Source: Sedimentisphaerales bacterium (GTDB lineage: Bacteria > Planctomycetota > Phycisphaerae > Sedimentisphaerales > SM23-30). From it: 64,000 bases of DNA. This document shows positions 6,110 to 51,999 of this stretch, piece after piece. Location: the NCBI GenBank assembly GCA_963663965.2, contig CAXXFK010000042.1:96001-160000 (forward strand), given 5' to 3'. The notes under the pieces were generated by a model. It was not told the origin of the DNA, did not search any database, and worked only from the letters and a program-made list of their open reading frames with translations. A program made the position numbers and the translations under genes. How positions within the stretch are numbered: the stretch's first letter is position 1; each line of letters opens with the position of its first letter.

Positions 6110-6192
6110 TTTTGTTCCCTGTAAAATTAAGTATTGGTGAAAAAATGCTGCTATCTTTCGTTTATTAAAGTTGAGCCCGGTTATCCGTATGA

Positions 6193-7920: not shown

Positions 7921-7949
7921 AATAACACCTCTGGCACATAAGATGCCTG

Positions 7950-11841: not shown

Positions 11842-12279
11842 ATGAAACAGAAACAGGAAGAACTAATCAGTTTGGCGGTTTGTGGGTTGTTTCCGATGAT
11901 TGTTGGTTTTTCGATTATTGTTACGATCTGTTATGACGGGGTGGGATTCAAGGCCGGAATTATGATGCTAAGCTGGCTGGCTGCGAGTGCTTTTATCTGG
12001 GTTGTGCCTGATATTTTGCATAAAATGGGTTTAAAAAAAGAGGTATTGCGTGATGAACGTGATGCTCAGATTCATAAAACGGCTGCCCTGATGGCTCATG
12101 TGGTGGTCTGGATTGGTCTGTTGGGCGCCAGTTTGCTGATCTGGGGCCGGGTGGGCAATGGTGGTTCTGTGCCGATTGAGGTATTGATGTTTTTGTGTGT
12201 TGGCGGTGTGATGCTGTTTCAGGTGGCTTTGGTGATTTTCAGCATGGTTCTGGAGGAAAGAGGATTGAGGCATGGCTGA
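11842..12279 (+). CDS. Four-TM membrane protein (DUF2178-like, DER motif)
   Basis: Hydrophobic helices flanking RDERDAQI; overlaps the downstream HTH gene. Confidence 0.65.
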   Translation: MKQKQEELISLAVCGLFPMIVGFSIIVTICYDGVGFKAGIMMLSWLAASAFIWVVPDILHKMGLKKEVLRDERDAQIHKTAALMAHVVVWIGLLGASLLIWGRVGNGGSVPIEVLMFLCVGGVMLFQVALVIFSMVLEERGLRHG

Positions 12280-12487
12280 AAGTAAATTGCGTAATCATAT
12301 CAGGCGGTTGCGTTTTGAGCATAATGAGATGACTCAGCTTCAGTTGGCTGAACAGGTCGGGGTTACGCGTCAGACGATTATTGCGATTGAGGCGGATCGC
12401 TATTCGCCTTCGCTGGTGCTGGCATTTAAAATCGCGCGGTTTTTTCATCGACCGGTGGATGAGGTTTTTGAATATATAGACGATTAA
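12272..12487 (+). CDS. XRE-family HTH regulator
   Basis: MTQLQLAEQVGVTRQTIIAIEADRYSPSLVLAFKIA. Confidence 0.93.
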   Translation: MAESKLRNHIRRLRFEHNEMTQLQLAEQVGVTRQTIIAIEADRYSPSLVLAFKIARFFHRPVDEVFEYIDD

Positions 12488-12682
12488 TGGGTTGGTGGGG
12501 GGTGAGTTGCCGGGCGGGGCAATTTTGCGTAAAAGTGTGGCATTACGAAAGTTAGTTGACTGAAGGTATGGGATTTCTTATAATCCTAACCTTTGTGTAA
12601 GAAAGATAATTTACTATAGCGGCGACAGGTGGCTGGGGTGGTCCAACGGGATTCGTCGCAAGGTGTTGAGAATATATAGCTT

Positions 12683-13732
12683 ATGATAAATTCACAGACA
12701 GTGAAAGCGCTTGCCGAGCATGTGGGCGGCATCGTGGAGGGGGATGGTGACCTGTTAATCCGGGGGGCGTCAACTTTGAGTGAGGCCGGGCCGGATGAAA
12801 TTTCGTTTCTGGCCAATCCCAAATACGAAAAAGAGTTACAGACCACAAAGGCGGCTGTTATTGTGGTTAATGAGAAAATTCCGAATTATGGCCGGACAGT
12901 GATCCGGTGTAAGGATCCTTATTACGCGTTTATGCAATGTGTGGTATTGATTCATGGGCATCGGGAACATGAAAAGATCGGGGTCAGTGAACGGGCGAGC
13001 ATCGATTCATCGGCTCAAATCGGCGAGGGGGTGGATATCCATGATTTTACGGTGGTGTCGGCGGATGTGACAATTGGCGATCAGACCTGTATCTATTCCA
13101 ATTGCACGATCGGGCCGGGAACGAAGATCGGGAAAGAGTGTATTATCTATCCGAATGTAACGATTTACGATGGGTGTTCGATCGGGGACCGGTGTATTAT
13201 TCATTCCGGGACAGTGATCGGTCAGGATGGGTTTGGGTTCGCGACGCATGACGGTGTTCATCATAAGATCCCGCAGATTGGCGGGGTAGTGATCGAGGAT
13301 GATGTCGAGATCGGGGCAAATTGCGCGATTGACCGGGGGACGCTGGGGGATACGGTGATCGGTAAAGGGACGAAGATGAGCAACCTGATCGCGATCGGGC
13401 ATAATACCCGGATCGGGGCGCATTGTTTGCTGGTGGCCCAGGTCGGGATCGCCGGGAGTGTGAGTGTGGGGAACTATTGTGTGTTTGGCGGGCAGGTAGG
13501 CGTGGTGGGTCATATCAAGATTGGTGACCGGGTGAAGATCGGGGCGCAGTCGGGCGTGACGAATAATCTGGATGATGGTCAGATGGTGATGGGATCGCCG
13601 GCCTGGCCGATGAACGAGGCGAAGCGGTCGATGATGATGATGAAAAGCCTGCCGGATATCCGCAAGAAACTCAAGGATCTGGATCGATCGTTGCGGCAAT
13701 ATATTGGCGAGAGTGAAGACGAGACTGAATAA
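12683..13732 (+). CDS. lpxD: UDP-3-O-(3-hydroxyacyl)glucosamine N-acyltransferase
   Basis: ISFLANPKY; hexapeptide repeats; [25 protein letters not shown]. Confidence 0.96.
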
Positions 13733-13805
13733 GGGGCGTGGCCGCGGTGATGATATCGAGTGACATGAGATCAAAGATAAAAACCATTTTGGACCCATTA
13801 CCGGG

Positions 13806-14669
13806 TTGAGTATGCAGCGGGTGGAACAGGATAACCGACCGGTATTTGGATTGATCGCGGGGCAGGGGCGGTTGCCGTTTCTGGTGGCGCGTGGGGCGCG
13901 GGATGCGGGGTACCGGGTGGTGTGTGTGGGGTTTCGGGATCAGGCTGAGCCGGAGTTGATGGAGGCGGTGGACCGGTTTTACTGGGTGTCGCTGGCGCGG
14001 CCGGGGGGGTGGATCCGGAAGTTGACCAAGGAGGGGGTACGGGATACGATTATGGTGGGACGGGTGGCGAAGAAGCGGATTTATACGCCGTTTCGGCTGT
14101 TGACGTATTTGCCGGACTGGCGGGCGATTCGGGTGTGGTATGGGCGGCTGAGCCAGAAAGATAAGCGAGATGATACGTTATTGAAGGCGCTGGCGGATGA
14201 ACTGGCCAGCGGAGGTGTTATTTTGAACGATTCGACGCAGTTTTGTAAGGACCAGATGGCGACTGAGGGAGTGATGACCCGGACGCAGCCGGGTAAGGGG
14301 GTGGCGGGTGATATCGAGTTCGGGTGGGAGATTGTCAAGCGGCTGAGCGATCTGGATGTGGGGCAGGCGATCGCAGTGAAGGAAAAGGATATTATCGCGG
14401 TGGAGGCGATTGAAGGGACGGACCGGATGATCGAGCGGGCGGGCGAGTTGTGCCGGGCGGGGGGCTGGACGCTGATCAAGACGGCGCGGTCGGATCAGGA
14501 TATGCGGTTCGATGTGCCGACGATCGGGGTTGGGACGATCGAGAAGCTGCATCGGTGCAAGGCGACGTGTGTGGTGGTGGAGGCGGGCAAGACGATTATG
14601 ATCGACAAGGAAGAGACGCTGGCGCTGGCGGACCGGTATAAGATTGCGGTGGTGGGGCATCGGGTTTGA
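13806..14669 (+). CDS. lpxI: UDP-2,3-diacylglucosamine diphosphatase LpxI (DUF1009)
   Basis: GLIAGQGRLP, DVGQAI, AVEAIEGTD, QDMRFDVPTIG; follows lpxD. Confidence 0.92.
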   Translation: MSMQRVEQDNRPVFGLIAGQGRLPFLVARGARDAGYRVVCVGFRDQAEPELMEAVDRFYWVSLARPGGWIRKLTKEGVRDTIMVGRVAKKRIYTPFRLLTYLPDWRAIRVWYGRLSQKDKRDDTLLKALADELASGGVILNDSTQFCKDQMATEGVMTRTQPGKGVAGDIEFGWEIVKRLSDLDVGQAIAVKEKDIIAVEAIEGTDRMIERAGELCRAGGWTLIKTARSDQDMRFDVPTIGVGTIEKLHRCKATCVVVEAGKTIMIDKEETLALADRYKIAVVGHRV

Positions 14670-15194
14670 GGCTGGAGAGGCAGTGAGGGGCTGGAATTGT
14701 AAGGGTTGATGGGGTAATCAGGCAGGGGAATCCGGGCCGGTCGGAATAAGGTATCACCTGGGAACTGCTATGGGATCGGTTTGTTTACACTTTGCTGAAC
14801 AGGCGATGGTAAGGTCTTGGATTTCAATGAGATGGATGATAAGGTTAGGGGAATTGGCTTCGTTTAGATTGGGGTGGCGGTAGTCAAGAGGGGGGTAGCA
14901 GGTAGAGAGAAGCAAGCAGGCAGGTAGCAAGCAGGGAGGAAGTAAAGAATCAGGAAGAGGACTGGAATGGGGGGCGAATAATGGTCGTTGGGTTCGTTTG
15001 GAACATGTTGTTATATAAGAGGTTAAGGTTGATTTTGCGGATGTTGGATTGGGCGGGCAAGGTTTGTTGTGGGCGGCCCAGATATAGTTGAAGGCTTTTG
15101 GGATTGACCGAATGGGTGGCCGGGGGTAATATGCTGGGCGGTTTGAAAGTTTTAAAGATTACTTAGATGGCGAATTTGAAAGGAGTATCCGGTT

Positions 15195-15985
15195 ATGGCT
15201 ATTGCGGTATCGATGGTGATGTTTGATGGGCCGGTCAAACTGGCGGTTGGCAAGATTACACAATACTTGAATGAGATCTGGGCTGACCTGCCGAAAGTTG
15301 GCGGGGCGCAGGAGCATGATAATATGGTGGCGTTTCAGCTGGGGGAGGCGGACGTGGCGCTGGGAGTGATCGCGGCGCCGATGCCGTGGGATGAGTTGGA
15401 GAGTGTGTGTGAGATGAGTCCGTTGTGGCCGGGGGCGGCTGAGGTGTTGAAGGAACACCGGGAGCATGTGATTGTGACGGTGCGGGGTGAGCTGGATCCG
15501 GTTGAGTTGTCGGGATTGCTGACGCAGGTGACGGCGGCGGTGATGGCGAGTTCGGAGGCGGCGCTGGGGGTGTACTGGGGAAATGCTTCGATGGTGGTTC
15601 CGAAGGATATGTTTATCGAATTTGCGGTGGATATTCTGCCGCAGGGGCCGCCGCTGTTTGTGTGGGTGAACTTTCAGGCGGGGCCGATGGAGGAGGAGGG
15701 GGTCAGCGGCGGATTTACAACGGGACTGGAGGCGCTGGGGCTGATGGAGTTGGAGACGGAGAACGCGACGGAGTCGCCGGGGAAATGAAGGAGCGGCTGG
15801 TGGACCTGGCGGGGTACCTGGTGGAAAACGGGCCGGTGATTGGCGATGGCGATACGGTGGGGCGCGATGAGGATGAGAAGATACGGGTGGTGTACGCGGA
15901 ATCGGCGTTTGGCAAGGAGGGGGAGGTGATGCGGCTGGAGTATGGCGATGGGGAGGAGAAGAAGGCGTGGTGGAAGTTCTGGTGA
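15195..15985 (+). pseudogene. DUF4261-like protein split by a frameshift at the G4 run 15779-15782
   Basis: Frame 1 ends ...TESPGK*; one extra G gives ...ESPGEMKERL...YLVENGPVIGDGDTVG...KKAWWKFW. Confidence 0.7.
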
Positions 15986-16545
15986 GGGGGGGCAAGCCGC
16001 GACCAAAGAAGAAATTTCACACGAAGCCGCCAAGCCACAAAGGGAAACGGCCAGACTGGTTGAGTTGGAGTTGGAAAGTGGAATACGAATTTTCTCTGGG
16101 CGATTAGATTTGACCGCAACTCCCTAAAAGCTTCAAGAGATCAAGATTTGAACCACGAAGCCGTCCTCCTGAGGCGGATCTTCGACCTTCGGCTACACGA
16201 AGAGCGCCTGCGGCGCTACACGAAGGGCCGGGGGCCTGGTTGAGGAATTGATTCGGATTGAAACTTTGAACAGAAAAAAGGACCATTTACTATGTAATGA
16301 ATAAAACTTATAATACATGTTCTTTGAAACGACGCGAAAAACAAGAGTATGAAGGATAGCATTACGAATTAGTACTAAATAAAACAGGGATTAATGGATG
16401 TCTGATTTGACTACCCTGTGATGATTATAAAGATTATTAATATTAAGAATTATGATCTGATGGAGAGGGATTGATTTCACAGGTATACAAGATTGAATAT
16501 AACCATATTGGTAATAAATTAACTATTTCAATAATGAATCTTTAA

Positions 16546-18924
16546 GTGAATATGCCATTATTAAGATATAATTTGGATATGCTGGGATGGTATGAGTTTG
16601 AACATTTATGCCAAACTCTACTCAAACATAAATTAAGTTTAGGAATTGAAGCTTGGGGAGGAACAAATGATTATGGACGAGATGCGTATTATACTGGAGA
16701 ATTAAAGTATCCAGGAAATGAAATCCAAAAGGGCCCATTTCTTTTTCAATGTAAGTTTATAAACGGAGCTAATTCTGCCTCAGCTAAGATTGAAAAACCT
16801 ATTTTAAATGCAGTTAAAAAGGAATGCCAACAAATTACAGATCGTCTAACAAGCAATAAATGGACAATTATTCCAACAGTGTATACTTTTTTGACGAATG
16901 CTGTTTTATCTTCAACTCTTAGAGAAAAAATAAAATCTCAAATAAAAGCAGTTTTACCAAATTCTGATATTGTCTTACTAGGTGGAAATGATATTTGTGG
17001 GTTCATTGATTTGACATCTGGCATAGCACGAAAATTTCCACAGATATTATCTCTTAATGATTTAGATATATTACTTGAACAATGTGTTAACCGGGACATA
17101 TTAAATAGGAGTGAGGCTGCAATAGAAGAAGCAAAAGAGATTAGCAAAGTATTTGTACCTACAGAAGCTTATTCGAAAGCCATTAAAACATTAAGAGAGC
17201 ATTTTTATGTAGTTCTTGAAGGACCACCTGAAGTTGGGAAAACTGCGATAGGAAGGATGATAGCGTTGTCATACTTACCAGAAGGATGGGAAGTAATCGA
17301 ATGCCAAGCTCCGAATGATTTCCTAAAAATATATAACAGGACACAAAAACAAATATTTATCACTGATGATTCTTTTGGTCGGACGGAATATAATCCTGAG
17401 AGGGTAAGGCTATGGCAAGATGATTTACCTGCAATTCTAAGAAAGGTCAATAAGGACCATTTACTTATAATGACCAGTCGAAAACATCTTTTGGAAATGG
17501 CAAAAGAAAAGCTTGATATTCCTGGATCTCATGAAGACTTTCCAAAGCTTTCAGAAGTGTTAATAGATGTATCACAGTTAATAAAAATTGAGAAGACTTT
17601 AATGCTTTATAAACATATGAAACAAGTTAAATTACCTGAAGATATCAAAGGTGTTGTTCGAGTATTTGCTGAAAAAGTTATTATGCATTCAGGATTCACG
17701 CCAGAACGGATTAGAGTACTCTCAAACAAAGTCAAAGCTGAAAAATTTTCTATTCAGCTAATCGATAATATTTTGAGAAATCCAACAGATAGAATGAGTA
17801 AAACATATCGAGAGTTGCCCGTAGCGTATAAATGGTTTATGGTATCTGTATTAATTAATCAATCAAATTATTATTCAGCACAATACCAAAACACGAAAAG
17901 GTCTTATGAAAAATTGTGCCCATTAGAAGAATTAGTAGATTTTGAAAAAATAATTGCACAGTTATCTGAAGCTTTCATAAAACTTAAAGAATACATTGGA
18001 AGCAATAAGCCTCAAATAGATTGGGTGCATCCGAGTTGTGGCGATATGGTTTCTAAAGAATTATCTTCATGTGCTATAGATCGAAAGCAATTTCTAGAAT
18101 TTTGCGGAGAGTCTGGACTAATGTTTGCAGTTTCAGTTGGTGGTGGAGATGTTGGACAGAGAGTATTGCCTTTATTAATAAGTTCGAAAGACTGGGAAAT
18201 ATTTGAGAAACGATGTCTAGCTTGTTATAATACAAATCTTCTAAATCGCATTTATGATTCGGTTCAACAATTATCCAAAACCCCAAACCATTATAAAGAT
18301 AAAGCAAAGCTTGAAATATTATTAAAAAAATCCTTGATAACAACAATAATACATATCAATGATAATGGAAGCATGTACAATAATCATATAAATATTTTTA
18401 GAATTGTTAAGCAATATTCAAATGAAAAACTGCCTCCTATAAATTATTATGAAGCGTGGTTAAGTGTGGCTGATTCTGCAATTGGGATTTTAAATGACGA
18501 TTATAAGGAATGGCATAAATGGGGTGACATAGACCATTTTATTTCTTTAACCAAAGTCATTTTAGAATATGATCCAACGTGTTTTGAAACGAATAATATG
18601 CGGGATAAATGGCAGGAATTTATAGCCACCTTGATCAAGCGAGGATTAGAAGTTTCTAATTATCAAATGTTTGAAGATGATCATGAAATGGTACAAGAGT
18701 TGTTTGAATGTTATGATGAGAGTAGTAAGCTTTTTAAAGATATATCTGCAATGATAGAAAGTGATGATGTTAAAGAACAGTGTAAAACTATTAGCAATAA
18801 TTTTAATTGTTTAATGGATGATATATCAGAATATTTACCATACGAAGGCGATGTTGGTAGTGATGAGAGTAGGGCATATTATGATAATGATTTTAGTGTG
18901 CAAAGTATTTTTAGAGACTTGTAA
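16546..18924 (+). CDS. Mrr-like restriction endonuclease fused to a STAND (nSTAND3-like) NTPase; putative defence protein
   Basis: N-term EFEHLC...DYGRD...FQCK; Walker A GPPEVGKT; Walker B IFITDDSFG; LIMTSR; AT-rich. Confidence 0.75.
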   Translation: MNMPLLRYNLDMLGWYEFEHLCQTLLKHKLSLGIEAWGGTNDYGRDAYYTGELKYPGNEIQKGPFLFQCKFINGANSASAKIEKPILNAVKKECQQITDRLTSNKWTIIPTVYTFLTNAVLSSTLREKIKSQIKAVLPNSDIVLLGGNDICGFIDLTSGIARKFPQILSLNDLDILLEQCVNRDILNRSEAAIEEAKEISKVFVPTEAYSKAIKTLREHFYVVLEGPPEVGKTAIGRMIALSYLPEGWEVIECQAPNDFLKIYNRTQKQIFITDDSFGRTEYNPERVRLWQDDLPAILRKVNKDHLLIMTSRKHLLEMAKEKLDIPGSHEDFPKLSEVLIDVSQLIKIEKTLMLYKHMKQVKLPEDIKGVVRVFAEKVIMHSGFTPERIRVLSNKVKAEKFSIQLIDNILRNPTDRMSKTYRELPVAYKWFMVSVLINQSNYYSAQYQNTKRSYEKLCPLEELVDFEKIIAQLSEAFIKLKEYIGSNKPQIDWVHPSCGDMVSKELSSCAIDRKQFLEFCGESGLMFAVSVGGGDVGQRVLPLLISSKDWEIFEKRCLACYNTNLLNRIYDSVQQLSKTPNHYKDKAKLEILLKKSLITTIIHINDNGSMYNNHINIFRIVKQYSNEKLPPINYYEAWLSVADSAIGILNDDYKEWHKWGDIDHFISLTKVILEYDPTCFETNNMRDKWQEFIATLIKRGLEVSNYQMFEDDHEMVQELFECYDESSKLFKDISAMIESDDVKEQCKTISNNFNCLMDDISEYLPYEGDVGSDESRAYYDNDFSVQSIFRDL

Positions 18925-19103
18925 GATTTTTTGCATTTAGCATTGTGAGCTAAAATGTAGTTCTTTCATTTATTGAAAATAAGGGAAGATATTCCGATTA
19001 GGCCCAGAAGAACCCGGATTTTGCTTTGCTCAAAATGGACCAACAAGTTTGCCCATTCTCTTCTATCGGCTAGCACATTAATTATTGTTGTGGGATATTT
19101 GGT

Positions 19104-20114
19104 ATGAAATCAGGTAATGATAAAGTTCGCAAGATATTTATATCAAGTCAGGATTTAGGAAACTGGGATGTGATTAAGTTTTTGGAATCGCTTCATTCGT
19201 TGGGGATGATTTATGAATATGCAGATGATTATTGTGCAAATATTCAATCGGTCATAGCAAGGAATGATATTTTTGTTGCGGTCATATCTGAGGCTTATAT
19301 TCGTTCTAAAGCAATGGCAGAGCAAGTGCAATATGCTGTTCAGTTATGGGAGGAATACAAACGGCCGTTGCTTTTTATATTTAGGATAGATAAAACACCT
19401 TTATTTCATGATTTTGGGGTTTTAACGCATACAGCCCAGGAATTGCCAATGAAGCCCGGAAGAGCCGCCGCAAAACTACTGGTTGCAAAGGGGAAGAAAC
19501 CAATAGAAATACTTAAATCGGGGATAGATGCGCCTGACTTTCAAGAATATATGGAAATACTTTCACGCGAGATGGGATTGGCAAGATTTACAAATCATGT
19601 CGAGTCTTCCACGGTATTGCGTATTTTATTTAGGCCGACATTTGATCCAGAATGCGTGGTTGAAATAAGATGGAATGAACAAAATGTGATAATGGTTTTA
19701 ATTTCGATGCAAACGAATGTCGAGCAGTGGGAATGTTATGTGCGTCAAAGCCGATCAGGAAAATGGCATCCACTAAAGCCTGCCCCCGATCCACCAGAGT
19801 TATGGAAAGAAGAAATTGTTTTACCCCATGATGTATTATTTGAATTGAAGTGGATGATCATTGATTCAACCTGGAGAGAGGCAATGAATGCTCAAGCTTC
19901 ATCAAGAACTAATTCTATTTGTGATGGGATGGGGATGGATATCGATATGTATAGCGGGGGGAAAGTCAACTCAATATTTTATAATTGTCCAGATCTCGGC
20001 ACGCCGATTCATACATTCGTTAGTCATGTTTTAATATTAGCAAAATCAGAATTCATATTGCCGAAAAGTAAGGCTTTGATTGAAAAATTATTGAGGTATA
20101 CCGTATGGGAATGA
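19104..20114 (+). CDS. TIR-like N-terminal domain plus unknown C-terminal domain
   Basis: KIFISS and DIFVAVISEAYIRS pattern typical of TIR_2. Confidence 0.55.
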   Translation: MKSGNDKVRKIFISSQDLGNWDVIKFLESLHSLGMIYEYADDYCANIQSVIARNDIFVAVISEAYIRSKAMAEQVQYAVQLWEEYKRPLLFIFRIDKTPLFHDFGVLTHTAQELPMKPGRAAAKLLVAKGKKPIEILKSGIDAPDFQEYMEILSREMGLARFTNHVESSTVLRILFRPTFDPECVVEIRWNEQNVIMVLISMQTNVEQWECYVRQSRSGKWHPLKPAPDPPELWKEEIVLPHDVLFELKWMIIDSTWREAMNAQASSRTNSICDGMGMDIDMYSGGKVNSIFYNCPDLGTPIHTFVSHVLILAKSEFILPKSKALIEKLLRYTVWE

Positions 20115-20327
20115 AAATTCCTGGTCGCTCGAAAGGCAACATTTTACTTGTCAACTATTTGTTTCCCGGCGAAACGGGAAAATTCAAATGTAAAGAGTAA
20201 ATTTTTGAGAAAGTGAATGATTTTAGAGTTGATTTCTATTCCAAGTGATTCTGATCTGATCAGCATGGGCAAACAAGTTTGCCCATCTTCTTTTCGTTTT
20301 GTGATAAAATGATAACGGGTGTTTTTT

Positions 20328-20402
20328 CACGCTGAAGCGTGGGCTCCGTACATTGGTTTGGGGTTGGGAGAGAGACGCGAGGCGTTGCGTCTTTACGTGG
20401 GG
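20328..20402. repeat. REP-like palindrome cluster, copy 1
   Basis: CACGCtgaaGCGTG (20328-41) and a 41-bp unit ggttgggagAGAGACGCGAggcgTTGCGTCTTTACgtgggg (20362-20402). Confidence 0.7.
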
Positions 20403-20577
20403 GGGATGGTGTTGGGTGGCGATTATTTGGGTTGGGATTTTTGTTTGATTGGTTGGGGAGATTGATTATAATGAGGGTCAGGACAGGGTTGTCCGGCGCT
20501 GAGTCAGGAAGACGGACCGAATACATAAGATATTGTTTGATCTGTATATCTGTCTGTCTTGATTTTCAGGAGTTGTT

Positions 20578-22134
20578 ATGAGTACTGAAGAAAACGGGCG
20601 TGAAACGGTAGAGGCAAGTGGTCCGGAAGAGAAAGAATCGAAGCGCGAGGCGGGCCGGCCGGGACGGGGGCCGAAGCGTCGATTGCGGCGGAGTTGGGGG
20701 GGCTGGATTGGAGTGCTGACGCGCCGGGGGCTCTGGCTGGGGTTGGTGGCGGCGGTGGTGGCGATACCGATGGTGTGGCGGTTTATGCCGCAGCAATACG
20801 AGGCGACGGTGGCTGTTCAGATCAAGAAGATAATAAACAGCTTCATTTTTGGTGATGAGACGACGGATCGGCCGATGCCGAATTATGAAAGTTTTCGGAA
20901 TACCCAGGCGGAATATCTAGTCAGTCCACTTGTTATGGATGAAGTGGCTAATCAATTGGGAAAAGAGAAAATCTCTCTAAATATTTTAAGGGCTAAACCT
21001 GATGGTTTCTTTCGATTATTGAAAGAAATCTGGATACGTAAAGACTTGTCGCTCTGGTTCCGGGAGAGTTCTGGACTTGAGAATCGACTTATGAAGCTGG
21101 TCGATAACGGGACGATTGTTGCGGTTCCGCAACCTGACAGCGAAATGATAACAGTGACAATGAGGCATACAGATCCAGACGAGGCGCTGCGAATTGTGAG
21201 AGCGATTTGTATGGCATATATGCTGAAGATTGTCAGGCCGATGGAAGTTCATGAGACTGGGAAATTACGTGATTTACATGTTGAAAAGGATCAGTTTTGC
21301 AGATCTATACTGAATTTACGGGAAAGGATTCAGGAAATTGCTATGAAATATGGCACAGGCGATCTGGAGCGGTGGCAGGAAGTTACGATGGAACGCAAAG
21401 TGGCAATTGCTAAGAGAGTCGGTGAACTGGAACGGGAAAAGGTCGCTATCGAAGGTGAGCTGGCTAAACTGGAAGGACAGAATGGTACGGAATCGTCGAT
21501 TCCAGCAGTAGAAGATGAACTACTCAAGCAGGATTATATTAATAAGGATCCGCAGGTACAAAGCCTGATCCGAAATATCATTGAAGTACAGGAGCAGCTA
21601 ATTAAGGCTCATGAAATACTAAGTGAACAAAATCCGGAGCTGTGTCGGCTGCAAAACAGGCTGGTTCTATTACAATCAGCGTTGAATAAACGTAAGACGG
21701 AACTGGAACAGAGCTATTATGAGTTGCGGATGGGGGGGGCTGGTGCGGTAAGCAGTGTAGCTATGGCCCAAGCGATCAGGGAAGAGCCTATGCGATCGAT
21801 CAAAGAGCAGTTGGAGAACCGCGACGATGAGCTTGACAAGTTAAAGACAGAATTAGAAAGACTGGAGAAAGATTATAAAAACGCGGGCCGGGATTTATTG
21901 GAAATGTGGCAACGGCAAGATGACCTGACAATTCTTAAGCCAATATACGACAGGATAATGACTCGAATATATCAATTGGAAATTGAATTGTCAAGACGGC
22001 CGGGCCGGATTGAGGTGCCGTATGAACCGACATCAAATGCGTTGCCTGATCTGCGCGGGTGGATTACGTTCTGGCTGGGTGGTGGGATTGGGGTGGCGGT
22101 TGTTGGGATCTTTCTGTTGCGGAAGGTTGGTTGA
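20578..22134 (+). CDS. GumC/Wzc-like polysaccharide chain-length / coiled-coil membrane protein (no kinase domain)
   Basis: N-terminal TM + PQQYEATV; NTQAEYLVS; long coiled coil with SEQNPEL; C-terminal TM. Confidence 0.7.
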   Translation: MSTEENGRETVEASGPEEKESKREAGRPGRGPKRRLRRSWGGWIGVLTRRGLWLGLVAAVVAIPMVWRFMPQQYEATVAVQIKKIINSFIFGDETTDRPMPNYESFRNTQAEYLVSPLVMDEVANQLGKEKISLNILRAKPDGFFRLLKEIWIRKDLSLWFRESSGLENRLMKLVDNGTIVAVPQPDSEMITVTMRHTDPDEALRIVRAICMAYMLKIVRPMEVHETGKLRDLHVEKDQFCRSILNLRERIQEIAMKYGTGDLERWQEVTMERKVAIAKRVGELEREKVAIEGELAKLEGQNGTESSIPAVEDELLKQDYINKDPQVQSLIRNIIEVQEQLIKAHEILSEQNPELCRLQNRLVLLQSALNKRKTELEQSYYELRMGGAGAVSSVAMAQAIREEPMRSIKEQLENRDDELDKLKTELERLEKDYKNAGRDLLEMWQRQDDLTILKPIYDRIMTRIYQLEIELSRRPGRIEVPYEPTSNALPDLRGWITFWLGGGIGVAVVGIFLLRKVG

Positions 22135-22183
22135 TGGTCTTTTACAGAATGGGGGCCCACAATAGACGTCCGTATGGTGGGAT

Positions 22184-22285
22184 GGTTGGGAGAGAGACGC
22201 GAGGCATCGCGTCTCTACGTGGGGCATTTGAGATTTGAGAGATCAGCCTTTTGTCTTTAAGGAGGGATAGCACGCTGAAGCGTGG
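22184..22285. repeat. REP-like palindrome cluster, copy 2
   Basis: 41-bp unit 22184-22224, 38/41 identical to copy 1 (GTAGAGACGCGA..TCGCGTCTCT on the minus strand); CACGCtgaaGCGTG at 22271-84. Confidence 0.7.
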
Positions 22286-22308
22286 ATTCCTTACGTGGAG
22301 TTCGAACT

Positions 22309-23673
22309 TCAGCTGAAGCGTTGGCTGAGGCGGTTGAGGATGGTTTCGGTTTCCCATTGGGGGTGACGGGAGCATTGGGCGGTTTCGCTGGCGGTGTTGC
22401 CCAGGTTGATGACGATGCCGGATTTTTTTTCGATGGTGTTCCAGGAGCAGAACTGGATATCGTGATGTTCTGACATCTGAATGATCTGGGCGCGGAGAGC
22501 GGGCCGGCCGCGATTGGCGCGGAGGTAAGGGGGCGCGACGGGCGGAACGCCGGGCAGGCGATGGTTGAGCAGGCCGTTGCGGTCGAGGCGATCGAAGTGG
22601 CCGTCTGCAACCAGGCCGAAGCGGATATCGATTTCTTTGAGCCGGGTGGCGATTTGGGGATCGATCACGGCGCAGCCAGTCAGGTCGCAGCCGGTGAAGT
22701 TCCGCATGAGATTGAGTTTGATGGCCCAGTCGAGCCGGTCGGAGACCGCTAGCGGTCCGGCGGCCAGCAGGTCCAGGGTTTCCTGCCAGAGTTGGCAGGC
22801 ATAACCGGCCCAGGGCGGCAGGTGTTCGGAGTGAAGGTGGGCGCGGACGATATCGAGATAGCGGCGCTGGATGCCCAGGGCGCTGTCGTGGGCGCCTCCG
22901 GCAAGCCGGACAGTCCGGGTCAGATCGAGGGTGGCGGTGAAGTCATTGAAAACCTGTAGTTCGCTATTTTCCAGAAAATCCACCGGTGGGCGAGAAAGCA
23001 AGCCGGCTTCGATCAGTTTAAGGATCAAGGCCGTGGTCGCGTATTTTAAAAAGAGAGCGGTTTGCGAAAACAGGCTGTCGCCGTGATTGATGTGGATCGA
23101 ACAGCGCCGATCCGGTTCGCGGCGGATGCAGGTGTCGATAATGGTGCGCTGTTTGGGGCCGTTGACACCGGTGAGATGGCGAACACGGGGTGACAGGGTG
23201 AACCAGGCGTTATCCATATGTTTGTAGTCGAGGCCGCCCGATCCGGTATAGATGATCCGTGAGACGAGATGGGGCATGATCTGCCGGGCGTAGGCACTGG
23301 CCTGAGGGCGGGTACTCTGGTAATTTTCGTGGCAGCCCCAGGTGTGACCGAGGTAATCGACATTGGTCCGGATCAGCTGGAATTCGCATGCCTGTGCTTC
23401 GCGGGCGAGGATGTCTTCGATGACTTTGAGGTTGTAGATGAGGTCCCAGGGATTGAAACATTCGCAGGTGCAGCCTTCGGGATGGTGGCCGGCGTCGATG
23501 TAGAATCGGCCCCACTCCCAGAAGAAGCCGTTGGGTCCGGGCAGGGTATGGTAGTTGGCCTGGCAACGGGACAATAGCCCAGGAGCGAGGCGCTCCTGAG
23601 CTTTACGGCTGTACCCGAGAATGCCGAATTCGCGTTCTTCACCAAAACAGCACATGGATTCAATACGGGTCAT
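22309..23673 (-). CDS. PafA/Dop (Pup-ligase / PafA2) family protein
   Basis: FGEEREFG; GRFYIDAGHHPEGCTCEC; NVDYLGHTWGCHENY; IHINHGDSLFSQTALFLKYATTALILKLIEAG; LDWAIK. Confidence 0.9.
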   Translation of the reverse strand: MTRIESMCCFGEEREFGILGYSRKAQERLAPGLLSRCQANYHTLPGPNGFFWEWGRFYIDAGHHPEGCTCECFNPWDLIYNLKVIEDILAREAQACEFQLIRTNVDYLGHTWGCHENYQSTRPQASAYARQIMPHLVSRIIYTGSGGLDYKHMDNAWFTLSPRVRHLTGVNGPKQRTIIDTCIRREPDRRCSIHINHGDSLFSQTALFLKYATTALILKLIEAGLLSRPPVDFLENSELQVFNDFTATLDLTRTVRLAGGAHDSALGIQRRYLDIVRAHLHSEHLPPWAGYACQLWQETLDLLAAGPLAVSDRLDWAIKLNLMRNFTGCDLTGCAVIDPQIATRLKEIDIRFGLVADGHFDRLDRNGLLNHRLPGVPPVAPPYLRANRGRPALRAQIIQMSEHHDIQFCSWNTIEKKSGIVINLGNTASETAQCSRHPQWETETILNRLSQRFS

Positions 23674-23828
23674 TCGCCGGACTCCTGCTCGACGCGTTCG
23701 CGCAGGAAGGTCTGGCTGTCGGACGAAAGGGCATCCTGGATGATCTGGCTGCCCATCTGCAACAGGGACGTTTCATTCTGACGATTGACATCGGTGCGAC
23801 AACATTTTTCACTTTCTGTCATAGGCAT
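23670..23828 (-). CDS. Pup/UBact-like small protein modifier, 52 aa (absent from the ORF track)
   Basis: MPMTESEKCCRTDVNRQNETSLLQMGSQIIQDALSSDSQTFLRERVEQESGE*; AAGGAG RBS; stop overlaps the ligase start (ATGA). Confidence 0.85.
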   Translation of the reverse strand: MPMTESEKCCRTDVNRQNETSLLQMGSQIIQDALSSDSQTFLRERVEQESGE

Positions 23829-23876
23829 GGGTAATTCTCCTTAAATGACATGGTTGGGATTAATAGACAGGTAACA

Positions 23877-25670
23877 CTATGAATTCGGATCCGAAACGTT
23901 TAAGTTATCGATCATTTGTAACAGGCGCTGGTTGAGCAGATGAACGCAGGTTTGCAGATCAGGCTTGCCGTAGAACCAGTCCAGAGGGTAGCGGATTTTG
24001 AGATCGGCGAGTTCGGCGTCGATACGGCTGTTGGCGAAACGGTTGTAACGGGTGAACAGCAGCCGCTGCTGGACGCGGGGCAGGAAATAGCGCAGCAGGA
24101 TTTCCCAGCCGGGCCGGTCGCGGTAGTCGGAAATGTCGGGATATCCGCAGACAATAGCCGGGGAGAGGCTGTCGCCGGAGTATTGCCGGCCGAGGAAAGC
24201 CACCAGCAATTCGGCAGAATAGCTGATGGTCAATGATTCGGGATTAAAATGGTCGGACCGGATCAGATCAACGGCCATCTCGTTACGGTAGTAATCGAGA
24301 ATGGGGATCAGGCGCTGATGCATGTCGTGCATTCTGGTGATCTTGTCGGGTGTGGCAATGAGGATGAGTCTCAGACCGGGCTTGCGCCGGCATTCATGAT
24401 GGAGCAGCGAAATGGTTTGGGGATCGATCGGGGTATCCGTTTTTAAAACGTGGGATTCCGATTCGAATTTCCGGCGTGTTTCGCGACATTCATATTTGAC
24501 GCTCTGGCTGGTGGTGAGCTGTTCGATCCGGGTGAGGATATCGGGCAATAAGGGGTGGACGGCTGCCTGTGTTTGCGCGTTCTGGCGGGCCAGTTTGTAA
24601 TAGCGCAAGGCGGTTCTTTTTTCGCCGGACAGATCGCCCAGTCGGTGATAAACCGGGACAAAGAATCGGTGGCCGGCGCAGCAGGTACGCCTGAGAATGC
24701 TCAGCGCGCGGCTATAGCATTTGCGCGCCAGGGTGTGGTGTCCCGTGCGGTAGTACCATTCGCCGCGCAGGCGGAAGTAGACGGCGAAGTCCGGATGGTT
24801 TAATTTGCGGTAGGTCTGCCAGAGCAGTCTGCCGGTATTTTTCAGGTATGCCCTAGTGGTGAGGATGGCATCAGGTCCCTCCAATTCGAGCTTGCATTCC
24901 GCCAGGGTCAACATGGCGCGGACCACCTGAGGGCTGGCCATGGCGTAGTTTTTGATGAAATGAGCGAGCGCCTGTACGGACAGGGTTTGGGCCTGCCGCC
25001 AGTTGCCGGCGAGGGCATGGAGTTCGGCGATGTGGTGCTGAATTTCCATGGTGCGTGAATGGTGGGCGCCGTAGCACTGGACGAAATCGGCATGGGCCTT
25101 ATTGAGAATGAACAGGGCATCGTTGTAATAGCCCAGCTCGACCAGCAGGCTGCCCAGTCGGTAAAAGGCGTGTGCCGTATTGCTGTCTCGAACGGGGTAT
25201 CGGGTATTATAGTACTGAATAGCGGGTTTGATCAGTTGGTAGGCGGCTTGGTAGTCGCCATAGCGGGTGTGGATACAGGCCGCATTGACCTGATAAAATG
25301 CGCGGTTCGAACTGCTGTTGGGCATGCCGAGTACCTGGGAGATTAAAACCACGGCCTGGTTAAACTCGGCCAGTTCCATCAGGCAGATACTCAGGTTGTT
25401 GAGATAGGTCGTATCGTTGGGCGTCTGCTCGAGAGCCTGGATATAGGCCTGGGTGGCTTCGGTGAGATGGCCCGCCCGTTTGGAGGACAGTCCCAGCCAG
25501 TTGTAGATATCCGCCACGCCGGAGGGCCGATCGTCAGGCGGAATGCGATAGAAGCAGGCCAGCGCCATGCGGTAATAGCGGGCAGATTTGCGGAATTCGC
25601 CACGAGTAAAACATTCTCCGCCCGCACTGCAGCAGGCAGTCATACGCTCCTTTGGGGTTACCATAGACAC
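23877..25670 (-). CDS. Tetratricopeptide repeat protein with an unknown C-terminal domain
   Basis: Repeated TPR patterns (YNWLGL..., YLNNLSI..., AFYRLGSLL...) with kinesin-light-chain-like linkers (YGAHH, LNHPD). Confidence 0.8.
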   Translation of the reverse strand: MSMVTPKERMTACCSAGGECFTRGEFRKSARYYRMALACFYRIPPDDRPSGVADIYNWLGLSSKRAGHLTEATQAYIQALEQTPNDTTYLNNLSICLMELAEFNQAVVLISQVLGMPNSSSNRAFYQVNAACIHTRYGDYQAAYQLIKPAIQYYNTRYPVRDSNTAHAFYRLGSLLVELGYYNDALFILNKAHADFVQCYGAHHSRTMEIQHHIAELHALAGNWRQAQTLSVQALAHFIKNYAMASPQVVRAMLTLAECKLELEGPDAILTTRAYLKNTGRLLWQTYRKLNHPDFAVYFRLRGEWYYRTGHHTLARKCYSRALSILRRTCCAGHRFFVPVYHRLGDLSGEKRTALRYYKLARQNAQTQAAVHPLLPDILTRIEQLTTSQSVKYECRETRRKFESESHVLKTDTPIDPQTISLLHHECRRKPGLRLILIATPDKITRMHDMHQRLIPILDYYRNEMAVDLIRSDHFNPESLTISYSAELLVAFLGRQYSGDSLSPAIVCGYPDISDYRDRPGWEILLRYFLPRVQQRLLFTRYNRFANSRIDAELADLKIRYPLDWFYGKPDLQTCVHLLNQRLLQMIDNLNVSDPNS

Positions 25671-25702
25671 ACACTCCCCTGGAAATAGTATAGAGTTAGT
25701 TG

Positions 25703-26005
25703 TTATTCAGTCGGGTAATAGCTTTCAATCAGTTTGAGTGAGCGGGCCGCCCGGCCTTCGCCGGGATGGCGGTCCAGAAACACTTTTAAAAGCGACTGGC
25801 ATTGTCGATATTGTTTTCGGTATAATAACAATGCCGCCAGAAGATCGGTATACCGCCAGTTGTCATCTGACGGTTGGTTCGATGTGGCACGCAGCATATC
25901 GATCGCCATATCGAAATGGCCATGCCGAATCAGTGTTCTGGCCTGGCGATACAGGCTGAATAAATTTCCCTTGTTCATCGTTGATACCTGTTTATAATTA
26001 TTCAT
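25703..26005 (-). CDS. Small TPR-like protein
   Basis: ARTLIRHGHFDMAIDML...LAALLLYRKQY...FLDRHP helical repeat pattern. Confidence 0.6.
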   Translation of the reverse strand: MNNYKQVSTMNKGNLFSLYRQARTLIRHGHFDMAIDMLRATSNQPSDDNWRYTDLLAALLLYRKQYRQCQSLLKVFLDRHPGEGRAARSLKLIESYYPTE

Positions 26006-26299
26006 TGCGATAGAAAACTTACCGTTGCTTATTGCAACACTGATGGTATACTAAACATAAAGTTTTTTGAGAAGCTCTTAAGCAAGTTCTAAATAAATTA
26101 ATAGCAAGGAAACGGGCCCTTGCCAGTCTTAGTATTTCGCCTGAGTCGAAACGCTTTAAGCCAATCGATATTTTGCCTGAAAAGGTCGAAAATAATCAAT
26201 GTTGACTTTGGCAGATGAGAAGAAATTATCGTGATTGGCCGCAATAAAGGTGATTATAAGCGAGGTTCATGTAAAAAAAATAAAAAAGGGTAGAGAATC

Positions 26300-27406
26300 A
26301 TGAAAATTGAATTCTGTCTGCAGGAACTGATCAAGAAGCATAATATCAATTCGTACGGTTTACAGCGCAAGCTGGCGGAGAAAACGAAAAAACACACCCA
26401 GACCATCGCTAAAATAGTGAATAACCAGGCGTCGGCGCTTTCGGTAGAGACCCTGGAAATTATCTGCGAGTGGCTGGTGGATAATGGGGTGCCGGCCAAG
26501 GATTTGCCGCAGGCCTTGTTCAAGCAGACATCGTATGGCTTGTTTGATGCCCTGACCCACAAGAAAAACATGATCGTTTACCTGGGTGAGTCTTGTCAGC
26601 AGAGCCCGGACAAAGGGCCGGCGATTCGCTGGATTTCGCGTCGTGACGCCCAGGTGGAGAATCTGATTGTCAAGGAACTTTCCAGACAGTCCGCCCCTTT
26701 GACGATCGAGACGCGTTATGTTTCGGCCACGTTCAAGTATCATCCGGAAATGAATTATGAGGCTGAAGCGGCCAAGGATATTGAGAATTCCCGGGTATTG
26801 TATCAGGATATGGCGGGCCGGGTCGATCAAAGCGCCATGGTTCTGATCGGATCACAGCGGGCCAATTACCTGGTGGAACATTATATTGCCAACATGTTTC
26901 ATTGCCGGCCGTTTCAGCCGACAGCCAATCCGGGGGAAGAGGTGCCGTTTTATATCCGCTTCCGCAGCAAAGATCCGAATCTGGCCAGCGTATTTGGCGG
27001 GGCTGAATTGCCGGGGGGGTATGATGAAGATACGGATGAGGCCGGGATTCTGTTTCGTAATACAGAGAACAAGTGGGTATTCTGGCCGTGGGAGGAAAAG
27101 AAGCAATATGTCGCCCTGGCGATTGTGGAGTATACTCCGGGTCCGCAGAATATTGTCGTCTGTCTGTTTGGCTTTTCAGGCATGGCGACTGAATTGGTGG
27201 GTGAGTGTTTGGTTCGACAGGAGATCGATGGATTGTGGCCGCCCAGGATTCAGATTAAAAAGAAAAAGTATTCGATTGTGCTATGCAAATTCACGGTGCC
27301 GGAAGGATTCGATCTGGAAAACAACAAAGATTTTAATCTGATCGATAAAGAATTTGTCAGTCTGAATCATGAGATAGTCAAAAATCATATGAAGACCAAT
27401 AAGTGA
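26300..27406 (+). CDS. XRE/HTH_26-like regulator with a C-terminal alpha/beta (putative sensor) domain
   Basis: N-term QRKLAEK...TIAKIVNN...LSVETLEIICEWL; divergent from the TPR-Pup operon. Confidence 0.7.
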   Translation: MKIEFCLQELIKKHNINSYGLQRKLAEKTKKHTQTIAKIVNNQASALSVETLEIICEWLVDNGVPAKDLPQALFKQTSYGLFDALTHKKNMIVYLGESCQQSPDKGPAIRWISRRDAQVENLIVKELSRQSAPLTIETRYVSATFKYHPEMNYEAEAAKDIENSRVLYQDMAGRVDQSAMVLIGSQRANYLVEHYIANMFHCRPFQPTANPGEEVPFYIRFRSKDPNLASVFGGAELPGGYDEDTDEAGILFRNTENKWVFWPWEEKKQYVALAIVEYTPGPQNIVVCLFGFSGMATELVGECLVRQEIDGLWPPRIQIKKKKYSIVLCKFTVPEGFDLENNKDFNLIDKEFVSLNHEIVKNHMKTNK

Positions 27407-27671
27407 AGCAACTTGTGTTTTGACGGACCTGAGCATTGGCAGTCATTGACCCAAAGCGGTAAATTAGATCAACCTGACCCTAAACCGGCAGTGCCGGAAC
27501 CAAACAGGGTCACAGTGGCATCCGCCTCCCTGCTGAGATTTCTTTGCCATTTTGCGCAAGATTTCACTCGTAAGAGACTAAAATAGCTTGTATTTTAAAC
27601 GAATTGATATTAGAATTATCAATATAAATAAAGTTTGTGAAAAGGTATCTTGCCATTGGAGGAAAGCTAAA

Positions 27672-28355
27672 GTGAATCAGTGTGTCTGGATAGTATTTTG
27701 GGCTATTGGCGGCCTGATTGGGATTGTCCACCAGGTTAATGCTACCCTGATCGGATTTGTGCTGGAAGGGCAATTACAAGCCACGCAGGCAGACTATGGT
27801 CAGTTAGATGGCGCTCGAATTCGGTTGAGTTATACGGCGGATTCGCAGGCAACGCCGACGAATACGCGATCGTTTTCGGGTGGGGTTACCTCGTTTTTTG
27901 ACGTGTTTACCATGACCTGTCAGATTACGGATCGACCTGATGGGGCTGATGATATTTTAAATCTGAGCGTCAAGAATGATCCGATGGCGATTAATTTCTT
28001 TGAATCGCAAAGTGACAATGACCGGTTCACATTCGATAGCCGAACCTGGATGCTGCCGATGGGGGACTGGGATGAGATTGAACTGGATGTCAGTTCGTGG
28101 GGAATAGAATTCAGTACCAATGGCTTTTTTGGAGGTACTGACGCAGTGCCGGATTTGACATTTTTAGATGGCATGAATGCTAATGACTGGGTGGTTAGGC
28201 GATACCCGGAAATCACCGAGGAGTCCAGTGGAGATGAATATTCGATATCAGAGATATCATTGACTTTTGTGCCGGAGCCGGCAACGATTGGGCTGTTGAT
28301 GGTGGGAGGCATTCTGCTGAGGAAGCGGTTGTTGCTATCGTCGACACGTATCTAA
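27672..28355 (+). CDS. PEP-CTERM protein (GTG start after GGAGG)
   Basis: C-terminal VPEPATIGLLMVGGILLRKR; signal peptide. Confidence 0.88.
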   Translation: MNQCVWIVFWAIGGLIGIVHQVNATLIGFVLEGQLQATQADYGQLDGARIRLSYTADSQATPTNTRSFSGGVTSFFDVFTMTCQITDRPDGADDILNLSVKNDPMAINFFESQSDNDRFTFDSRTWMLPMGDWDEIELDVSSWGIEFSTNGFFGGTDAVPDLTFLDGMNANDWVVRRYPEITEESSGDEYSISEISLTFVPEPATIGLLMVGGILLRKRLLLSSTRI

Positions 28356-51687: not shown

Positions 51688-51763
51688 TAATTACGATCAG
51701 GATTGCCCCGATGCAGATCACCCGGATAATCGTCATAATCACAGAGCCAAGCATGATGGTCAT
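51688..51763 (-). pseudogene. 5' fragment of the retron RT gene (hydrophobic N-terminal helix)
   Basis: GAGG RBS + MTIMLGSVIMTIIRVICIGAILIV; in frame with the RT once the IS and one TAATTA are removed. Confidence 0.8.
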
Positions 51764-51793
51764 TTGATTCCTCACTACAGTAAACATAAAAAA

Positions 51794-51999
51794 GACAAGG
51801 CAGCTCCTGACTTCATCCCATGGACCAGGGACGTTCACCAAAGGCCCATAACAGCTATATGTGAGGGAAAGCCTCTGGCTTGCTATGGCCCAAACATATA
51901 GCTGTTATGGGCCATACAGAAAAACGGCTCTGGGTACGCAATGCTACCCGGATTCACCCGCGGCGGATCGCCGCAGAAAAGTCTCAGGAGCTGCCTGTC
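51794..51999 (-). ncRNA. Retron msr-msd non-coding RNA
   Basis: a1/a2 inverted repeat AGGCAGCTCCTGA (51798-810) / TCAGGAGCTGCCT (51984-996); perfect 20-bp msd stem 51843-62 / 51894-913; two msr hairpins 51960-74 and 51932-49; directly upstream of the RT start. Confidence 0.88.

Follow-up and report, generated by a model that had tools for sequence, protein, structure and literature searches.

The window analysed here is a 64-kb stretch of contig CAXXFK010000042.1 from a Sedimentisphaerales bacterium (assembly GCA_963663965.2, positions 96,001 to 160,000). Its minus strand carries a compact cassette of four genes that encode, in this order, a small TPR (tetratricopeptide repeat)-like protein, a large TPR protein, a Pup-like tag and a homologue of PafA-type Pup ligases. 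The first gene (26005-25703) codes for 100 residues, and its matches to TPR_14 (23.2 bits for a cut-off of 23.5) and TPR_6 both lie slightly below the Pfam cut-offs. The large TPR protein (25670-23877; 597 residues; TPR_12, 61.5 bits) probably starts at the ATG at 25664. The tag gene (23828-23670) codes for 52 residues with the C-terminal end ...QESGE. Its ribosome site is AAGGAG, and the stop codon overlaps the start of the ligase gene (ATGA). The latter (23673-22309) encodes a 454-residue protein that matches PF03136 with 187.8 bits (cut-off 25). Divergent from the cassette is the gene of an XRE/Cro-type helix-turn-helix (HTH) regulator on the plus strand (26300-27406; 368 residues; HTH_26, 22.3 bits). 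The 294-bp gap between them (26006-26299) is presumed, from its position only, to hold the promoters and the operator. This gene order and the divergent HTH protein are as described in an earlier reading made from the letters of the DNA alone, hereafter the sequence-only reading.

The G+C content at third codon positions (GC3) is 0.66-0.73 for the ligase (0.73), tag and large TPR genes, 0.60 for the regulator gene and 0.53 for the small TPR gene. One public contig, possibly from the source sample, matches positions 16202-27505 with zero differences. A promoter scan of positions 22000-27700 yielded 8 sites versus 4.7 +/- 2.4 in shuffled sequences, and a terminator scan was likewise near chance.

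The tag peptide has no match among Pfam or NCBIfam models, those of Pup included. When the open reading frames (ORFs) of the genome were searched with a profile made of 53 tags from related loci, it was the only match, with an E value of 1.8e-7, and it aligns with 48 related tags at I30, L34, S38, F41 and G51. Judging from these sequence matches, the peptide is a member of the tag family of a larger operon that combines ubiquitin-like and Pup-type conjugation genes, which we call the hybrid operon. The tags of the relatives end with Gln in 44 cases and with Glu in 25 (n=69); that of the window ends with Gly-Glu.

The ligase homologue scores 142.8 bits against the PafA model TIGR03686 (cut-off 551.3) and 132.3 bits against that of Dop (cut-off 492.3), both below equivalog level. 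Its predicted structure (pLDDT 88.9, pTM 0.91) has the glutamine synthetase (GS) fold, with Foldseek TM scores of 0.70-0.80 to Dop and PafA structures. In a quick tree of 56 selected sequences, it groups with the PafA-like paralogues, while the Dop-like paralogues and the canonical PafA and Dop proteins are set apart with 97% SH-aLRT support. It is devoid of the Dop loop and has the PafA-type D-x-G-x-HPE spacing beside the catalytic Asp, both of which are given as PafA/Dop discriminators in PMC7947786. All six Mg ligands (E13, E15, Y58, E66, H115 and H194) and the catalytic Asp (D60), as defined for Dop in the residue list of PMC8599861, are kept. So are W411, R163 and R176, the last of which corresponds to R201 of PafA. 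Two arginines, before and on core strand 5, were proposed as arginine fingers in PMC2588565; of these active-site residues, the window ligase has R176 but lacks the Arg of the RLH motif. Alignments to Dop and the model showed no membrane-segment insertion, no dedicated membrane predictor having been run.

Among the 119 relatives listed by HMMER, which mostly have 480-790 residues, identity with the window ligase is 30-41%, and the frame of the latter is intact. GTDB genomes yielded 238 pattern matches for an alignment of 52 relatives; 228 of these were confirmed, and the best 80 loci were read. An unpublished genome contributes a single row (G442, L024) to the tallies of related loci, and no claim depends on it. 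Related loci were found in Acidobacteriota, Planctomycetota, Verrucomicrobiota, Gemmatimonadota, Binatota and Myxococcota, among others. Their common order is a winged-helix gene, FHA + Prok-RING, E1 (ThiF), E2 (UQ_con), an unknown gene and a ubiquitin-like (Ubl) gene, followed by JAB, an ARC-type ATPase, a Dop-like gene, the tag, a PafA-like gene and often a ClpA-like gene. Where at least 9 kb of upstream sequence was available (54 loci), FHA-RING is present in 44, E1 in 45, E2 in 46, Ubl in 48, JAB in 49, ARC in 48 and the Dop-like gene in 49, and four loci have none of these. The hybrid operon has no linked proteasome genes. The neighbourhood analysis of ligase homologues that the sequence-only reading had proposed thus uncovered this operon at most of the 80 loci.

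In 59 of the 61 cases with room for it, the gene immediately before that of the tag is Dop. In the window, the large TPR gene is found there instead, and the two TPR genes together occupy the place taken in the relatives by Dop, ARC and the whole ubiquitin-like system. Of the back half of the hybrid operon, the window keeps only the Glu-ending tag and the ligase. The sequence-only reading had seen neither this substitution nor the unusual divergence of the ligase described below. A Ubl-conjugation system coupled to a Pup-conjugation system has been reported in Thermofonsia and Planctomycetes (Kaur 2020, PMC7159879), and from that brief statement it appears to be the parent operon of the cassette.

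The system is sparse. PF03136 is found in none of 60 relatives and, among 400 genomes of the class, in three, each of which has two ligases. Of 24 non-self tag matches in 400 genomes of the phylum, the best 10 were checked; six genomes were thereby confirmed to carry the tag family, in each case between Dop and PafA. As a separate observation, the ARC-like ATPases of the parent operons (e.g. L073:6076-7773) mostly have a Tyr several residues from their end (YLYLNAA), whereas in canonical loci it is penultimate (GQYL). We take this non-penultimate Tyr to be in line with the lack of a 20S partner.

The assembly (G000) comprises 7.24 Mb in 42 contigs, with 94.6% completeness and 5.4% contamination. 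The window's ligase is the only match to PF03136, the Pup-ligase family, in the whole assembly, and no Dop was found. There are no matches to PF00227 (20S/HslV) in the assembly and none above cut-off to ARC (TIGR03689), for which the best three proteins are FtsH, a TPR-AAA protein and a plain AAA protein. The profiles of FHA-RING, E2, Ubl, JAB and the unknown gene also have no match in G000, which elsewhere has only weak ThiF-type and general AAA/Clp matches. The sequence-only reading had noted that prcA/prcB, ARC and a second PafA/Dop paralogue are missing from the window, and had called for a genome search for 20S and ARC genes; the absence extends to the whole assembly. The combination that was to speak against it, a proteasome operon elsewhere and an unconserved link with TPR genes, was not found.

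We surveyed proteasome genes in 55 genomes, namely 50 of the 80 locus genomes, three class members with ligases and two genomes with the regulator only. The surveyed genomes are incomplete, and two of the 53 that carry ligases are apparently the same. PF00227 matches are present in 41 of the 55. Of the 27 best matches that were classified, HslV accounts for 23 and the 20S beta subunit for the remaining 4. In each of these four cases the alpha gene is adjacent, and the pair is always on a contig other than that of the hybrid operon; three of the four pairs sit in canonical Dop-Pup-beta-alpha-PafA loci. Since 20S genes occur only on other contigs in 4 of 55 genomes, the missing proteasome is a legacy of the parent operon rather than a peculiarity of the window. 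These data support the non-proteasomal tagging postulated in the sequence-only reading. HslV was considered as a stand-in for the proteasome and rejected, as G000 lacks any HslV match; in the relatives, most of the classified matches are HslV. Separately, G441 (L161), G437 (L162), G473 (L111) and G469 (L163) each harbour a proteasome-linked tag locus plus a hybrid operon on different contigs.

We propose that the cassette is a minimal, irreversible tagging system, a reduced offshoot of the ubiquitin-plus-Pup operon that would put a permanent tag on a few proteins presented by the TPR proteins. We assign a probability of about 0.5 to this reading. Its starting point is the retention of a tag and a ligase that group with the tag family and the PafA-like paralogue of the hybrid operon, the other genes of which were not found in the assembly. 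With the PafA chemistry described in PMC8599861, ATP would phosphorylate the side-chain carboxylate of the terminal Glu, and the target lysine would then form an isopeptide bond. Because the tag ends in Glu, no Dop (deamidase) would be needed for activation. Nothing would take the mark off in the absence of Dop, nor would it be read for degradation where ARC and 20S are missing; it would rather block or re-route the target. The TPR proteins may supply the choice of targets, as TPR-like extensions on related ligases are thought to do. Finally, the regulator might repress the divergent promoter until a stress or invader signal is perceived.

Alternatively, the cassette might be a second, specialised tag-ligase unit, with a parent operon that includes Dop and ARC in an unassembled part of the genome. 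The L063 locus, a detached tag(Glu)-ligase-TPR cassette, is of this kind. The 94.6% completeness of the 42-contig assembly leaves room for such a situation, and in five of five checked genomes with a lone ligase locus, further ligase-family genes are present elsewhere. In contrast, none of the ~10 parent genes occurs in the assembly, PF03136 is found in 0 of 60 relatives, and the window ligase is far more diverged than those satellites. We regard this alternative as improbable.

The reduced-offshoot reading gives a specific role to the TPR proteins. The large one consists of ~370 residues of TPRs and a 200-residue C-terminal domain without a Pfam match. Of four non-self matches of this domain, three are repetitive proteins and were dropped, and the fourth is one credible stand-alone relative (P0127, E 2.5e-6). 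The TPR genes of the window have no BLAST relatives in the related loci read. We considered whether they could be split-off ligase extensions, and found no support for it: they score 5.7-8.8 bits against the extension profiles, versus 137 for the TPR protein of G404. PafA-like ORFs of at least 650 residues number 34 of 83, one being an ORF-calling artefact, and Pfam TPRs were detected in 6 of the 16 long ORFs tested. Stand-alone TPR genes follow the ligase gene in G404, L140 and L143. The TPR linkage is thus recurrent, and by analogy it is only plausible that TPR proteins serve as substrate selectors or adaptors, as the sequence-only reading had suggested. Beside these, nine acidobacterial loci (L012, L022, L037, L040, L045, L057, L060, L062 and L083) contain second PafA-like copies of ~700 residues, which bear a conserved helical extension and lack a tag immediately upstream. 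TIR, NB-ARC-TPR or DUF4062-NACHT-TPR genes adjoin several of these copies.

The regulator is composed of an XRE-type HTH followed by a 290-residue alpha/beta C-terminal domain (model pLDDT 82.9). This domain is closest to BcsB (Z 9.6, root-mean-square deviation 3.6, 164 aligned residues), a similarity that implies no ligand, and next to an archaeal S-layer anchor domain (Z 8.1, root-mean-square deviation 3.4, 119 aligned residues). Foldseek gave no match at an E value of 0.001, and ESM Atlas matches score below 0.9. Pfam detects HTH_26 and no WYL domain, which together with a winged helix characterizes PafBC and CapW/BrxR. The best fold matches are XRE HTH and BcsB/S-layer-type alpha/beta domains, but the protein might belong to an unlisted family. 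A protein search found two relatives. Searches for the regulator only then yielded 4 in 400 class genomes, 6 metagenome loci (two with the same sequence) and 8 in 400 phylum genomes. After one weak, HTH-only phylum match was dropped, 16 distinct other loci remained, which had been chosen without reference to the ligase.

At nine of these 16 loci, the regulator gene adjoins ubiquitin- or Pup-type genes, in five cases firmly and in four more weakly, as against the 3 in 400 class genomes with PF03136. No test statistic is given for this association because the kin are not independent. The regulator link is much stronger than the sequence-only reading could tell from the DNA of the window, the 'sensor' role that it ascribed to the protein being a prediction. 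The firm cases are G404, where the regulator stands at the head of a full hybrid operon; L139/L140 and L143, with Dop-tag-PafA-TPR-MoxR-vWA; and G577 and G663, with RING-E1-E2-Ubl-JAB. In L140:835-11098 and L143:1450-11092, the regulator is divergent to genes for Dop, a 57-residue tag ending with GQ, a PafA-like protein, a TPR protein, a MoxR-like AAA protein and a vWA-like protein. The MoxR and vWA labels come from weak matches and motifs, and L139 repeats part of L140. These are, as predicted from their genes, Pup cassettes in which a MoxR-vWA pair replaces ARC. The regulator of G577 (L164:9247-19900, L185) is accompanied by genes for ParB-like, RING, E1, E2, Ubl, JAB, ARC-like and ClpA-like proteins; with no PF03136 match in its genome, this is a ubiquitin-only form.

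The weaker links are those of L144, L142, G857 and G597. In L144:2-3725 the regulator is divergent to a gene for a protein with a ubiquitin-like stretch ending with GG, recognized by eye, and a JAB-like domain (Prok-JAB, E 0.0018). L142 is a short contig with part of an FHA gene, and G857 has a ThiF gene at a contig end. In G597 (L168:9365-14981), genes for a GGE-ending peptide, a 462-residue GHEIEFE-motif protein without a Pfam match and a WD40 protein precede that of the regulator. About 10 kb from this cassette are genes that we take to resemble type I restriction-modification genes. No common palindrome that could be a shared operator was seen across 15 regulator upstream regions. The regulator can serve as a handle in searches, since it finds cassettes that the Pup-ligase Pfam model misses (G597) as well as the TPR-MoxR-vWA forms, which were absent from the loci selected by their ligases.

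A broader view is that one XRE-type regulator family controls interchangeable proteasome-free tagging cassettes. Their forms would be ubiquitin+Pup+ARC, ubiquitin-only, Dop-Pup-PafA-TPR-MoxR-vWA, Pup-ligase-WD40 and that of the window. The latter would be the smallest working form, in which TPR adaptors act in an E3-like manner and invader proteins are marked irreversibly. We consider this rather unlikely as a whole; if true, pupylation chemistry would here be directed by adaptors, and employed against viruses, for the first time.

Several observations weigh against a working, reduced tagging cassette. The window ligase is the most diverged intact member seen, with a branch of 2.06 for a median of 0.66 in the quick tree. 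Of the 129 columns with at least 85% conservation across 197 relatives, 42 are lost in this protein, the median over the 198 rows being 6; a single row has lost more, which is an artefact of ORF calling. The lost columns include the C-terminal LDLxDP(F)...W motif, and the Arg of the RLH motif, 99% conserved in the relatives, is Ser192. The tag is one residue longer than most of its relatives between the conserved Phe and its end, and Glu-ending tags (25 of 69) are common where Dop is present too. L063, the sole clear detached cassette, is in a genome that carries Dop and PafA elsewhere, and no second copy of the exact five-gene layout was found among the loci searched. With no BLAST relatives and such low extension scores, the TPR-ligase link is recurrent rather than inherited. 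As for the regulator, four of its nine links are weak, and no tagging genes are nearby at 7 of the 16 loci (G045, G053, G250, L141, G635, G661 and G829). Among 49 genomes selected by their ligases, only two have a strong regulator homologue, both divergent at the operon head, and of four weak matches two adjoin the winged-helix gene of the operon. With links at 9 of 16 loci and in 2 of 49 ligase-selected genomes, the regulator is a frequent and not an obligatory partner, and most parent operons lack it.

Much of this would also fit a weakened remnant, in which most of the operon was deleted and the tag and ligase are under relaxed selection with little or no activity. The TPR genes would then be unrelated cargo that came under the regulator's promoter. 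The column losses and the missing RLH Arg, a branch three times the median, TPR genes without relatives in the related loci and regulators without tagging genes at seven loci are all as expected from such a history. The Dop gene of G250 has an internal stop and unrelated genes upstream, which indicates that operon decay occurs in this class. In contrast, the frame of the ligase is intact and its metal site is retained. The ligase agrees with the consensus at 51 of the 60 columns with 95% conservation or more, compared with only 19 of the 123 columns below 40%, and such selective retention is the pattern that purifying selection produces. The tag, its ribosome site and the start-stop overlap have also been retained. 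Moreover, the TPR-MoxR-vWA variant, whose ligase has a similarly long branch (2.02), is nevertheless conserved between two metagenome loci. On these grounds we find decay unlikely, albeit a serious contender.

The loss of the active-site Arg with the metal ligands kept could also mean that the protein has changed its job. It would no longer ligate, but serve as a scaffold or switch that binds ATP and the tag. The acidic end of the tag would be read by the large TPR protein, which has a C-terminus that may be TIR-like and would act as the output. The neighbours of the C-terminal domain in the ESM Atlas are TIR-like (0.86-0.87), an unconfirmed lead. The ten best matches with a family share one family or clan, with TIR_2 in the rows shown. 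In addition, TIR, DUF4062, NB-ARC or NACHT genes occur in 13 of the 80 related loci, a count made with seeds from the same loci and no control, which we do not use as support for our own reading. However, the Atlas scores stay below 0.9, and family agreement of this kind is also seen with one in three shuffled proteins. The domain has no Pfam match, and its likeness by eye to DUF4062 was not supported, with an hhalign probability of 0.1% against DUF4062 domains and no phmmer support against the locus proteins. Furthermore, Arg190, two residues upstream of Ser192, could replace the missing Arg according to the model and the alignment. A change of job is accordingly hard to favour, and we hold it to be poorly probable.

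The sequence-only reading had also placed the module about 2 kb from a STAND/TIR island. The distances measured from the end of the ligase gene are 2.2 kb to the TIR gene and 3.4 kb to the STAND gene, with a Wzz-like gene in between. The STAND gene (16546-18924, plus strand; GC content 0.32) codes for a 792-residue protein with a restriction endonuclease-like N-terminus (Mrr_cat, E 0.0018) and an nSTAND3 NTPase domain. The protein matches PDC-S73 of PADLOC (E 9.9e-43), and its gene looks like a stand-alone, separately acquired defence gene. The other gene (19104-20114, plus strand) encodes a TIR_2 domain (24.6 bits, below cut-off) and a 200-residue C-terminal part without a Pfam match; this protein has no PADLOC match.

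The proximity of these genes on one unbroken contig and the PADLOC match would fit a single defence island, in which the cassette acts jointly with the STAND and TIR proteins, for instance by tagging them or phage triggers. In contrast, the GC3 values of the STAND and TIR genes are 0.22 and 0.34, versus 0.66-0.73 for the ligase, tag and large TPR genes, and neither gene has a homologue in the 80 related loci. They look like a separate acquisition from that of the cassette, and the Wzz-like gene and repeats found genome-wide intervene. The repeats that flank the Wzz-like gene (20328-20402 and 22184-22294; 41 nt at 93% and 24 nt at 88%) have related copies elsewhere in the genome. Those at 16202, 22184 and 27479 were considered as island boundaries and discarded, because they have 63, 7 and 25 matches genome-wide and thus mark no insertion. 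A link with the STAND/TIR island is not supported, and joint action is very improbable.

With PADLOC 2.0.0, none of the four module proteins tested (the tag being outside the test) has a match at an E value of 0.001. No relative was found in viral contigs, and a plasmid collection gave two records, both actinobacterial and 29-32% identical. If the cassette is active, an antiphage role, also raised in the sequence-only reading, is a tentative possibility by analogy with Bil, CBASS and the repressor-linked Bub operons, as these are presented in PMC11601596. Like the window's cassette, Bil, Bub and type II CBASS are sparse protein-conjugation operons. In the same source, Bub operons often have a dedicated repressor (CapW/BrxR, 8%; CapH+CapP, 31%). 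They differ by their E1/E2 chemistry, as opposed to a GS-fold ligase, and by another tag and another regulator.

Among the known systems, the hybrid operon shares with the window its tag family and ligase clade, neither has a linked proteasome, and a regulator of the window's family heads the operon in G404, G474 and G467. It differs by its RING, E1, E2, Ubl, JAB, ARC, Dop and ClpA-like genes, in lieu of which the window has two unrelated TPR genes. The statement on the coupled operon in Kaur 2020 (PMC7159879) mentions neither the regulator nor reduced forms. The actinobacterial Pup-proteasome system (Pup, PafA, Dop, Mpa/ARC and PrcA/B; 4bjr, 4b0t, 4b0r and 5lrt) has the same GS fold and metal site and a short tag ending with Gly-Glu directly upstream of the ligase. 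In contrast, the window ligase is far below the PafA cut-off, the tag is unmatched by Pup models, and there is no Dop, ARC or 20S. UBact, reportedly described by Lehmann et al. in 2017 in Gram-negative bacteria, is said to have loci with proteasome genes and a short G[EQ]-ending tag beside a PafA/Dop-family gene. The window has a similar arrangement of tag and ligase, without an NCBIfam tag match or PF00227.

The actinobacterial regulator PafBC is described as a winged helix plus WYL protein in PMC8223512, whereas that of the window is of the XRE type. Proteasome-unlinked Pup/ligase pairs of Rhodopirellula and Plesiocystis, predicted to be regulatory rather than degradative, were reported by Iyer in 2008 (PMC2588565). 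According to that description, their ligases have four transmembrane segments after core strand 4 and a membrane-protein neighbour; the 454-residue window ligase has no such insertion and has TPR neighbours, and the absence of proteasome genes is common to both. The sequence-only reading had taken it as established that Pup and UBact loci include proteasome genes. This is too strong as a general statement because of those pairs. Taken together, the gene content indicates that the cassette is akin to PafA-Pup in its presumed working and is not a member of the Pup-proteasome, UBact or complete hybrid operon systems.

Work on pupylation has dealt almost exclusively with a degradation signal that a single ligase of broad specificity attaches. 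With no eraser, unfoldase or protease beside its four genes, the cassette would be a small system in which to study the role of a Pup-type tag without degradation, and it bears on the question of whether a PafA-type ligase can acquire E3-like specificity through adaptors. Should the ligase be inactive, the locus does no more than document the decay of the hybrid operon. The literature searched, supplements aside, yielded no description of the regulator family or of the reduced cassette. The regulator link and the predicted ligase-only design thus appear to be new; the proteasome-free theme is already in print, the exact layout was seen once, and the activity of the ligase is uncertain.

The window has some further features of note. 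GC skew is strongly positive over positions 12000-24000, well above the rest of the window and across genes of both strands, with a maximum of 0.48 at 14-16 kb. A 496-residue reverse transcriptase (48298-49788, minus strand; RVT_1, 78 bits) has three large same-strand ORFs without Pfam matches upstream of it (50027-55409). Finally, the minus strand at 4080-9359 codes for a lysine-2,3-aminomutase-like radical SAM protein, a GNAT-histone deacetylase fusion, two ATP-grasp ligases and a GNAT protein.

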